From NCBI GenBank assembly GCA_965215275.1, contig OZ244044.1, positions 832,001 through 896,000 on the forward strand: a stretch of 64,000 nt of DNA, written 5' to 3'. This DNA is from Thermodesulfobacteriota bacterium. GTDB lineage: Bacteria > Desulfobacterota_D > UBA1144 > Nemesobacterales > JAJCZQ01. A program made the position numbers and the translations under genes. Position 1 is the first letter of the stretch, and each line of letters starts with the position of its first letter. Shown one piece after another: positions 13,132-16,964 of this stretch. The notes under the pieces are model-generated. The model saw only the letters and a list, made by a program, of their open reading frames with translations. It did not search any database and had not been told where the DNA came from.

Positions 13132-16100
13132 TTAAACGTCAAGATTACTGACGTTCAGAGCGTTAACTTCTATAAATTCCCTTCTTGGTTCTACCTGATC
13201 TCCCATCAGAATGGTAAATAAATCATCGCTTTTAATGTCATCTTCCACTTTGACCTGCTTAAGCACCCTTGTTTCAGGGTTCATGGTAGTTTCCCAAAGC
13301 TGTTCGGGGTTCATCTCCCCAAGTCCCTTGTAACGCTGTATACTGAGCCCCTTCTTGCCCCTCTCGAATATAAAATCGCACAGACCGCCAAGGTTCTGGA
13401 ACTTATGAACTGTTTCCCCATCCACCAGATCATAAGGCTTGGAACCTATGGCTGATATGGATTCACACAGCTTCTTCAGTTCAGCAAAGTACGGTGAGTT
13501 AAGAAAGTCAAAATCGATCGTTACCGATCTGTTCCTTCCGTTCTCTCTGAACGTGTAGTTAATTCTGCTTGAATTGTGCTCGGTATCCTCTTCAAGTGTC
13601 CAGTCAATAGCCTCCACGCTGGGATAGTTTAACTCGACCCAGTCCTTGATCCCCGATAAGTGCACGTCAAGTTCAGATTCGTTTTCCAGTTTCAGATGCT
13701 TTTTCTTGAAATCGCTCCTGTTTGCAAAGGCATCAACGATCTTGGCATCCCATCCTTTTTTTTCTACCTGCTCAAGCAGCCTGCCGTAACTGATGGACCT
13801 TTTGATAATATCAACGAGCCTGCTGCCCTTTATTCCCTTGGAACTGCCGTTAAGTGCCGAAGTGATCTCCAGTCCGTCGGTGCCCAGATGGAGCAGGTAG
13901 TCCTCATATTCACTGTCGTCCTTTAAATACCTGGTGTTCTTTCCCTTCCCGACGCGGTAAAGCGGAGGCTGTGCCACGTAAAGATAGCCCCTTTCAATAA
14001 CCTCGAAAAAATGCCTGAAGAACAAGGTCAGAAGAAGTGTTCTTATATGTGATCCATCAACATCGGCGTCGGTCATCAGGATTATCTTGTGGTAGCGTAT
14101 CTTCGAAATATCAAAATCATCAACACCTATGCCCGTTCCAAGCACCGTTATAGCAGTGCTTATCTCCTCGTTGTTAAGCATTTTGTAAAGCTGGGCTTTT
14201 TCCACGTTCAGGATCTTTCCCCTGAGAGGTAAGACCGCCTGATTGTAGCGATCCCTGGCCTGTTTAGCAGAACCCCCGGCGGATTCTCCCTCTACGATGA
14301 ATATCTCCGCCTTTTCAGGGTCCCTTTCCTGGCAGTCGGCAAGCTTGCCCGGCAGTGAACCGGAATCAAGCACGCTCTTTCTTCTTGTAAGCTCCCTTGC
14401 TTTACGTGCGGCATCCCTTGCCCTTGCTGCATCTGCAGCTTTCTCAACGATCTTCTTGGCAACCGAGGGGTTCTCCTCAAAGAACGTTCCGAGCTTGTCG
14501 TTCAGGAGGGTTTCCACGATACCCTTTACGTACGTGTTGCCCAGTTTGGTCTTTGTCTGTCCTTCGAACTTAGGGTCGGGTATCTTCACGCTTATTACGG
14601 AAGTCAGGCCTTCCCTTACGTCCTCTCCACTCAGGGAAAACTTAAGGTTTTTTAACAGACTTTTATCTTCCGCGTATTTGTTTATGGTCTTTGTAAGAGC
14701 GGCCCTGAAACCCGAGAGATGGGTACCTCCTTCTATGTTGTTGATGTTGTTGGCATAAGTGAAGATCGTTTCGTTATAGGAGTCGTTGTACTGCATCGCC
14801 ACTTCCACCACGGCATCATCTTTTGAACCCTCAACGTAGATAACTTCCGGGTGAAGTGTTTTTCTGTTCTTATTGAGCTCTTCTATGAAAGCGGTAATTC
14901 CCCCCTCGTAGATAAAGTCCTGCTCCCTGCCGTCCCTTTCATCCCTGACGGCTATCTTCAGTCCTTTGTTAAGAAAGGCGACCTCCCGTATTCTGTGGGC
15001 AAGGGTATCATAGTTGAACTGATCTATCTCAAAGATCGTACTGTCCGGCTTGAACCTTATCTTTGTTCCTGTCCTGTCAGTGCTTCCCGTGATCTTTAAC
15101 GAAGTCGTTGCCTCTCCCTTCTCATATTCCTGAAAATATACATTCCCTCCCTTTCTGACCTCAAGCACAAGGGATTCGGACAGAGCGTTCACGACCGTTA
15201 CGCCAACACCGTGCAGTCCACCCGATACTCTGTAGACCTTGCCTTCGAACTTTCCTCCGGCGTGAAGTTGCGTCATAACAACTTCAGCTGCGGATTTTCC
15301 GGAGTCCTCATGTTCGTCCACCGGTATTCCTCTGCCGTTGTCTTCTATCGTGACGCTTTCATCTACGTGAATGGTAACCTTTATCTCGTCGCAGTAACCG
15401 GCAAGTGCTTCATCCACGCTGTTGTCAAGCACTTCAAATATAAGGTGATGAAAACCTCGCGAACTGGTATCGCCAATATACATATCGGGACGTTTTCTCA
15501 CTGCTTCAAGACCTGGCAATACCTTGATCTGCTCTGCAGTATATGAATCAAAAATAATCAATAGCTTACTTTCTGGCGGTTTCTTGATCTGCTCTGCAGT
15601 ATATGAATCGCCTACGGAAACTTTTTCTTTGGATACTTCGGTTTTACTACCACGGTTGTCGTATACTTTGGCATCCAGTTCTAGCTTTTTAGCCTTGTCA
15701 AAATCTTTAATCGCAAGATCTTGTTCTTTCTTTTCAGTGTATGCACTGCCACGGTTGTTGTATGCTAAAGCATTCGGTTTTATCTTTAGTGACTCTGTAT
15801 AATCCGCAATCGCACGATCATATTCTCCCTTCTTAGCGTATGAACTACCACGATTGTTGTATGTTAAAGCATTCGGTTCTATATTTAGTGAGTCCGTATA
15901 ATCCGCAATCGCACGATCATATTCTCCCTTCTTATCGTATGCATAACCACGGTTGTTGTATGCTTCAGTATTCGGTTTTATATTTAGTGAGTCCGTACAA
16001 TCTGCAATCGCACAATCATATTCTCCCTTCTTAGCGTATGATCTGCCACGATTGCTGTATGCTAAAGCATTCGGTTTTATCTTTAGTGAGTCCGTATAAT

Positions 16101-16887
16101 CCGCAATCGCAAGATTATATTCTTTTTTACGAAAATATGCATTGCCACGGTTGTTGTATGCTTCAGCATTCGGTTTTATCTTTAGTGACTCCGTACAATC
16201 CGCAATCGCACGATCATATTCTTCCTTCATAGCGTATGAACTGCCACGGTTGTTGTATGCTTCAGCATTCGGTTCTATATTTATTGACTCCGTATAATCC
16301 GCAATCGCACGATCATATTCCTTTTTACGAAAATATGCATTGCCACGGTTGTTGTATGCTTCAGCATTCGGTTTTATATTTATTGACTCCGTACAATCCG
16401 CAATCGCACGATCATATTCTTTCTTTCTAGTGTATACATAACCACGGTCTTTGTATGCTTCAGCATTCGGTTCTATATTTATTGACTCCGTATAATCCGC
16501 AATCGCAAGATCATATTCTCCCTTCTTAGCGTATGAACTGCCACGATTGTTGTATGTTAAAGCATTCGGTTTTATGCTTATTGACTCCGTATAATCTGTA
16601 ATCGCACGACCATATTCTCCCTTCTTAGCGTATGCATAACCACGGTTGTGGTATGCTTCAGTATTCGGTTCTATATTTATTGACTCCGTACAATCCGCAA
16701 TCGCACGATCATATCTTCCCTTCTTAGCGTATGAACTGCCACGATACTTGTATGCTAATGCTTTTATTGTTCCATCAGTTTCTAATTGGTTAATTTTTTT
16801 AGTACAGCTAGGGATTAACTCATCCAACTTTTGCTCTCTAAGAAGTTTGTCTGCTTTTTGCTTAAATTCTTGTAGTTTATCACTCAT
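13132..16887 (-). CDS. gyrB: DNA gyrase subunit B with an N-terminal TPR array fused in frame
   Basis: [54 protein letters not shown]; the first ~410 aa are TPRs. Confidence 0.95.
15523..15609. repeat. Two 27-bp direct repeats separated by 33 bp
   Basis: cttgatctgctctgcagtatatgaatc at 15523-15549 and 15583-15609 (encodes DSYTAEQIK twice). Confidence 0.95.
15645..16760 (-). repeat. About 11 tandem 99-bp (33-aa) TPR units
   Basis: [31 protein letters not shown] recurs with a 99-bp period. Confidence 0.9.
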
Positions 16888-16964
16888 AGGTTTATTCAGT
16901 TCCGTACTTAATGGGACAAATTGTATATAACTTCCATTATTTCATCGAAGATCGTCGTCAGGTC

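Follow-up and report, generated by a model that had tools for sequence, protein, structure and literature searches.

A 64,000-nucleotide stretch of a Thermodesulfobacteriota genome (hereafter the window) carries gyrB, the gene for the B subunit of DNA gyrase, joined in frame to a truncated gene for a tetratricopeptide repeat (TPR) protein. The join is real DNA and no misassembly, and the fused gene is the only gyrB of its genome. At a probability of about 0.6, we read the TPR gene as likely inserted by an IS1595-type insertion sequence (IS), the product as a single 141-kDa TPR-GyrB protein, and its repeat solenoid as a tolerated passenger. A sister lineage with a 95% identical GyrB retains the empty site, consisting of dcd, a short spacer and a normal GyrB, and by this comparison the fusion appears young, derived and confined to one lineage.

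Anatomy of the fused gene

As an earlier sequence-only reading of the window had described, one uninterrupted frame connects the repeats to a complete GyrB (Table 1). The repeat part, an AT-richer array of 99-bp units (GC 0.387, against 0.473 in gyrB), had been put at about 11 TPRs, and it holds 11 full units of 33 rather than 34 residues together with the start of a twelfth. Tandem Repeats Finder (TRF) places 10.6 copies with 83% matches at 15709-16756, and Pfam TPR_1 matches this part at E=2e-87, with the tandem helix-turn-helix TPR consensus present. In the AlphaFold2 models, the solenoid is confident over residues 1-403 (block predicted local distance difference test, pLDDT, 87-99 over residues 1-400), pLDDT falls below 50 across residues 404-449, and the ATPase domain, taken from a first fold, is confident from about residue 450. 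The low TPR confidence of that first fold was set aside in favor of a later model, because the first alignment contained no TPR homologs. Among repeats 1-10, pairwise pN is 0.158 and pS 0.146, and the repeats thus show no signal of purifying selection. The further claim that they had expanded recently is borne out in part by this pS of about 0.15; the expansion may predate or postdate the fusion.

The GyrB part (residues 447-1251) scores 977.6 with TIGR01059 over residues 449-1251, above the cut-off of 882.4, whereas two parE profiles stay below theirs (744.6 against 899.95, and 592.3 against 723.35). The GHKL ATPase motifs, the transducer lysine loop and the acidic TOPRIM motifs are all intact, and strap residues Y449 and I454 align to Tyr5 and Ile10 of E. 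coli, which a passage of PMC4585971 names as required for GyrB dimerization. Thus, the protein resembles long, E. coli-type GyrB (TIGR01059/PRK14939; PDB 6RKS chain B) in its full domain set, strap and motifs, but differs by 446 extra N-terminal residues and by the deletion of the native start and upstream spacer of its gene. Among 144 GyrB-type representatives, N-terminal extras reach at most ~170 residues in one transit-peptide-like case and 77 in the next. Toxoplasma TgGyrB, an apicoplast protein, also carries several hundred additional N-terminal residues (1-345), but sections of PMC4585971 treat these as a presumed targeting peptide, taken off for assays, whereas those of the bacterial window protein form a predicted folded solenoid.

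The genome (G000) is one contig (C1) of 1,990,023 bp and 99.87% complete. A tblastn search with the GyrB core returns a single match in it, even with the ATPase and TOPRIM parts alone at E 0.1; no second gyrB or parE was found with these queries, nor was a topoisomerase VI A subunit (TP6A) found in the genome. The gyrA partner is likewise represented by one PF00521 gene, with an 812-aa frame at C1:1524077.

Eight of the 15 listed sequencing runs were compared with the window. In X2, X3 and X4 of study P1, possibly the source of the original assembly, a 3119-nt unitig running from gyrB to 15788 shows no difference over the aligned stretch. In X5 (study P2), a 535-nt unitig covers 15254-15788 with 0 mismatches, and X6, X7 and X8 (P3-P5) each carry 15559-15709 exactly, at a depth of 3-8. 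The junction is therefore bridged without mismatch, and the fused allele present, in runs of five studies dated 2023-2025. Moreover, repeat-specific unitigs stand at single-copy depth (~21, against 21.9 for gyrB in X2). The count of 11 repeats rests on the original assembly, as no examined short-read contig spans the entire array.

No other TPR-GyrB fusion occurs in the best 120 of 7473 protein matches (7997 best-word candidates scored), in the best 150 representatives (6 TPR-only and 144 GyrB-only) or among 17 longer TPR matches, and none was found in a literature search whose coverage mostly excluded subscription journals. As far as these non-exhaustive searches reach, TPR-GyrB is a lineage-specific GyrB variant with no counterpart found.

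Table 1. Features of the fused gyrB locus and the TPR paralog (window coordinates unless marked C1)
Feature	Position	Strand	Basis or remark
TPR-GyrB open reading frame (ORF)	13132-16887	minus	1251 aa, stop-free; predicted 141 kDa
dcd (dCTP deaminase), ancestral upstream neighbor of gyrB	16965..17522	minus	Pfam DCD; same order in G001-G004
Unpaired IS1595-type terminal repeat, directed into the TPR gene	16908..16935, core 16923-16935	minus	motif enrichment; matrix score 12.6
5' leader common to fusion and TPR paralog	16888..16905	minus	weak Shine-Dalgarno, -3.5 kcal/mol; start region nearly unstructured
ATG start and N-terminal capping helices, residues 1-43	16759..16887	minus	66% identity to the 63291 paralog over 50 aa; helices in model
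Eleven 33-aa TPRs, residues 44-406, predicted continuous helical solenoid	15670..16758	minus	TRF; Pfam TPR_1; AlphaFold2
Truncated 12th repeat and fusion breakpoint (~15640-15648)	15640..15669	minus	bridged by contigs of studies P1-P5
Remnant of native GyrB N-terminal extension (native codons 11-20)	15610..15639	minus	8/10 residues as in P0122; 15583-15639 81% identical to G001 over 57 nt
First copy of exact 27-bp duplication of gyrB strap codons	15583..15609	minus	no third copy within 5 substitutions in genome
33-bp foreign in-frame insert with in-frame TTG (15559-15561)	15550..15582	minus	single copy in genome; absent from P0122
Second 27-bp copy, opening the GyrB core	15523-15549	minus	exact match to first
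Complete GyrB (GHKL ATPase, transducer, TOPRIM, long-type insertion, C-terminus)	13132..15549	minus	scores over the TIGR01059 and PRK14939 cut-offs
Paralogous TPR gene, 658 aa, eight TPRs	63291..64000, on to C1:897267 past the window	plus	weak DUF2971-like C-terminal domain

Empty site and origin of the TPR module

In the relatives G001-G004, dcd adjoins gyrB with a short spacer, and none of 30 relatives carries a fused gyrB: 27 have a full, open frame of 816-861 aa, against 1269 in this genome, and three have a split or broken one. The sister lineage is seen in run X10 (study P6), where a contig follows the window over 13001-15549 at 94.6% identity and, after 188 nt, resumes at 16953; the window has 1403 nt in this interval. 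This 188-nt interval agrees with G001, in which dcd stop and strap are 201 nt apart. Furthermore, X10 has six additional bases near the gyrB end, in agreement with P0122, a GyrB of normal type (827 aa, 95% identical) that is two residues longer at its C-terminus. Compared with P0122, the window gyrB has lost nine codons from its start, retains about ten and has 20 more directly before the strap.

With those nine codons went the native ribosome-binding site, the TTG start and the promoter region or upstream spacer. Queries with P0122 residues 1-22 and the G001 spacer found no displaced native 5' end elsewhere in the genome, and a metagenome pattern scan for gyrB 5' ends of other strains gave 0 matches. 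Native starts were scored at 65 loci in relatives, the distinct ones among 93 with a regex-matched strap motif once duplicates and non-matches had been dropped. The best start is TTG at 61 of them, GTG at three and ATG at one, with a median Shine-Dalgarno energy of -10.8 kcal/mol; the frame stays open upstream for no more than 82 codons, and a -10-like hexamer precedes the native start at 20 of 23 loci under a loose pattern applied with no control. In another close lineage, gyrB is entered by an unrelated frame of 55 residues, as seen in the 881-aa protein P0002, which shares 92% identity with the GyrB core; as read from the protein only, the native start region apparently persists there. This case suggests that the dcd-gyrB spacer may be an insertion hot spot.

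The TPR part had been said to share its N-terminus and 5' leader with the gene at 63291, and the two are indeed 80% identical over 146 nt, with homology beginning 18 nt above the ATG. The DUF2971 match of this paralog (E=0.0035, 19.1 bits) lies below the 22-bit cut-off. As a direct donor, the paralog was rejected: at 76% nucleotide identity over 210 codons and a pS of 0.30, its divergence far exceeds the 5% gyrB divergence from the empty-site lineage. The donor would be another member of the TPR family, because the paralog is too diverged and a homolog of its locus is already present in the fusion-free run X10. Searches for this donor returned 22 distant loci at <=56% identity, and distant matches in 4 of 100 other genomes of the order.

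An IS1595-like end had been reported 35 bp upstream of the fusion, and its core does sit 35 bp above the ATG. The motif class numbers 98 genome copies, against 5-12 in three Markov simulations, and at a score of >=12 there are 281 genome sites against 23 in a reversed-genome control, a false-positive rate of ~8%. This end shares 20 of its 28 nt with another end at C1:283640, and no partner end with an 8-bp target duplication lies within 80 kb (9 opposite ends, best flank match 5/8). The genome holds 28 matches to the IS1595 transposase (PF12762), none of them in the window, and 26 pairs of ends with 7-8 of 8 bp target duplications. Additionally, an end is found within 1 kb of 10 of the 15 TPR ORFs, compared with 407 of 1323 other ORFs (Fisher p=0.008). 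The similar end placed before the paralog at ~63150 is borderline, with a score of 11.5.

Transporter IS (tIS) of the IS1595 family carry passenger genes, according to portions of bioRxiv 10.1101/2021.05.26.445724. Like them, the window has a passenger-like gene with an IS1595-type end immediately upstream, and its genome abounds in such elements. Unlike them, the arrangement has one end only, no transposase and no target duplication, and its passenger is cut short and joined to a host gene that is essential. We infer insertion of a cassette followed by one-sided deletion as the simplest history. A passenger-carrying IS1595-type cassette would have landed in the dcd-gyrB spacer, and a deletion would have taken its far end, the C-terminal part of the TPR gene and the native gyrB 5' region, an event that only an in-frame join could survive. 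A separate duplication-plus-insert of 60 bp, before or after these events, would have lengthened the tether. The sequence-only proposal that a mobile TPR cassette replaced the gyrB start thus keeps its replacement, seen against the empty site of the sister, but not the 63291 gene as direct donor.

Directly downstream of gyrB, at 9529-12864, lies a restriction-modification island (GmrSD-HNH and two EcoRI-type methylases) whose one IS1595-like end, at 9529, scores 15.1. As the island is absent in G001 and X10 diverges at 13001, gyrB is flanked by acquired DNA on both sides. A composite element between the ends at 9529 and 16935 was rejected, with flanks matching at 4/8. Elsewhere in the window, at 37665-38985, a TnpB (Cas12f-like) gene stands between IS1595-like inverted ends with a 7/8 bp target duplication, and there are many such units genome-wide.

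Start codon and the 60-bp unit

The 27-bp duplication and the 33-bp insert together add 60 bp, or 20 codons, in frame. That no ATG lies between the TPRs and the GyrB core, as had been observed, is true but incomplete, given the in-frame TTG of the insert and the TTG starts of 61 of 65 relatives. Since relatives start gyrB at TTG, a GyrB of normal size is possible: initiation there would yield 809 aa and ~91 kDa. A rival explanation, which we consider unlikely though the best of the alternatives, is that this shorter protein is the working enzyme, made from the insert TTG or by proteolysis of the linker; on the TTG route, a start would have been restored by the 60-bp event, acting as a suppressor. 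Four codons separate the TTG from the conserved strap below it, the sister lineage lacks the insert, and the linker, predicted to be disordered, would be accessible to proteases. However, the TTG has no Shine-Dalgarno sequence (-0.7 kcal/mol, against the native median) and lies in a partly paired fold (-9.1 kcal/mol), while the RNA at the first ATG is open (-2.7); a chance TTG in 11 AT-rich codons is not rare, and the upstream frame is open over 442 codons and across both junctions. Furthermore, both lesions above the TTG keep the frame, which by our estimate would happen by chance in ~1 of 9 cases if translation began below them. Among 832 long frames, the best start is no stronger than that of the fusion in 32% and weaker than -1 in 10%. 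On these sequence features, the full-length product would be favored roughly 3 to 1 over the short one.

For 24 bases of the 33-bp insert, viral contigs contained no exact counterpart. As to an integrase-end origin of the insert, a motif that we take to be such an end has two genome matches, with no tRNA within 19 kb of either. The gyrB unit is one of five isolated repeat-insert-repeat units with periods of 60-71, out of 12 isolated exact pairs with periods of 25-400. The other four, at C1:17917, 631404, 684650 and 733506 (L151, L148, L149 and L150), consist of 35-38-bp duplications with unique 25-34-bp inserts and periods of 71, 63, 63 and 69; three lie inside ORFs without shifting the frame, and the unit in an S41-type protease adds 63 nt relative to G002 and G003. 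By their size, near that of 36-bp CRISPR repeats and spacers, these four are candidate natural off-target spacer integrations. The similarity of the five units to CRISPR repeats does not rise above background.

The genome has two CRISPR arrays with 36-bp repeats and 26-32-bp spacers, each beside a cas1 gene: one with 88 copies across the contig ends (C1:1-4200 and 1988400-1990023), the other with 21 copies (C1:1443400-1444800). From their repeat patterns, they are presumably of types V-A and II-C. Off-target integration by Cas1-Cas2 gives rise to neo-CRISPR arrays (Nivala et al. 2018, as cited by bioRxiv 10.1101/148544 and PMC6698737). These share the repeat-insert-repeat anatomy, and the genome has two cas1 genes and two arrays, but the gyrB duplication measures 27 bp, not 36, and its insert 33 bp, compared with 26-32-bp spacers. 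A CRISPR off-target origin of the gyrB unit fails on the repeat length and is kept as a lead only.

A related arrangement occurs at L148:830-1000 (minus strand), where inserts of ~27 and 33 bp part three copies of the first codons of a gene that we take to be bioA-like. The third copy has diverged and corresponds to the native start in G002; the two above it do not differ from each other. Upstream of this gene is an additional membrane-protein ORF; G002 and G003 are without it. Two further repeat regions stand apart in the window: tandem ~723-bp units encoding DUF1232-type small proteins (300-2470 and 4750-5350, with a further copy 3 kb off), and a 33-bp tandem array of 6.7 copies at 50717-51013 in a 197-aa coiled-coil-like ORF.

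Passenger or co-opted module

The solenoid had been pictured at the N-gate. It does not sit on the strap: ten native residues and the 20-codon insert intervene, giving a predicted disordered tether of about 45 residues; the linker itself spans residues 407-446. From this tether, the solenoid would hang above the ATPase gate, ~45 residues from the strap, leaving the Tyr5/Ile10 strap free to close the N-gate. Relatives already carry ~10-20 extra residues before the strap, and N-terminally His-tagged GyrB constructs are active according to portions of PMC11164529 and PMC4585971, although such tags are far smaller than the TPR add-on. The 400-residue add-on is probably a tolerated accident rather than a new function. 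No benefit is needed for it to persist across five studies, since the only good start is now that of the TPR gene, which is not easily lost.

Several observations weigh against this reading of a passenger delivered by an IS. An inward-facing end within 250 bp is found at just one of the 15 TPR ORFs, that of the fusion, and this end is low-scoring and partnerless. No direct TPR donor was found in the searches above, and an adjacent IS-driven rearrangement would leave the same picture as a passenger cassette. Diversifying selection could equally give a pN near pS among the repeats, and the gyrB dN/dS of 0.09 against G001 spans the entire branch to that relative without isolating the post-fusion period. 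Moreover, the Shine-Dalgarno sequence of the first ATG is weak, with 29% of random positions reaching its -3.5 kcal/mol, and the 77-nt spacer between dcd and the TPR gene contains no consensus promoter. Read-through from dcd is plausible, since a consensus promoter lies above dcd (such matches being at chance level), none lies in the spacer, and no terminator-like site was found on the minus strand between dcd and the TPR start. Transcription would now come from dcd read-through or the IS end, and native promoter control of gyrB would consequently be lost.

A doubtful alternative holds that the TPR module has been co-opted, with a repeat sensor from a TPR-effector family shielding the N-gate or binding a phage protein, a gyrase inhibitor or a replisome component as its partner, and is kept by selection. 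The spread of the allele over runs of five studies, its 11 repeats compared with eight in the paralog, the intact solenoid of the model, and the paralog architecture of TPRs with a weak DUF2971-like domain are consistent with it, and TPRs appear as sensors in bacterial defense in portions of the literature. Yet a single young lineage has the fusion, a sister with 95% GyrB identity is without it, no second, independent case appears among the top 120 and top 150 matches, the repeats lack a purifying signal, and the deleted native start makes TPR loss hard, which explains persistence without benefit. Of the protein-interaction solenoid proposed earlier, the solenoid stands as a prediction, while pN and pS among the repeats lend no support to binding or selection, which stay conjectural. 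Equally doubtful is a mobile TPR sensor irreversibly grafted onto the sole type II topoisomerase, which would make a ligand-sensing gyrase, regulated or guarded at its ATPase gate and locked in by the start deletion. Least credible is an array-driven assembly artefact or a dead gyrB replaced by another enzyme, for although no examined short-read contig covers the full array and P1 may be the source of the assembly, exact bridging in P2-P5, the single-copy depth of the repeat unitigs, the intact motifs and the lack of any other gyrB, parE or TP6A largely refute it.

If the full-length protein works, the N-gate tolerates two 46-kDa solenoids tethered where transported DNA enters, which would place a natural constraint on strand-passage models and mark a possible site for large N-terminal tags. 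If instead the short product dominates, the locus would present a start-codon rescue by a 60-bp insertion. With its empty-site sister known, the fusion offers a datable case in which a mobile gene captured the start of an essential gene and so could no longer be deleted, and in which gyrB lost its native promoter region.

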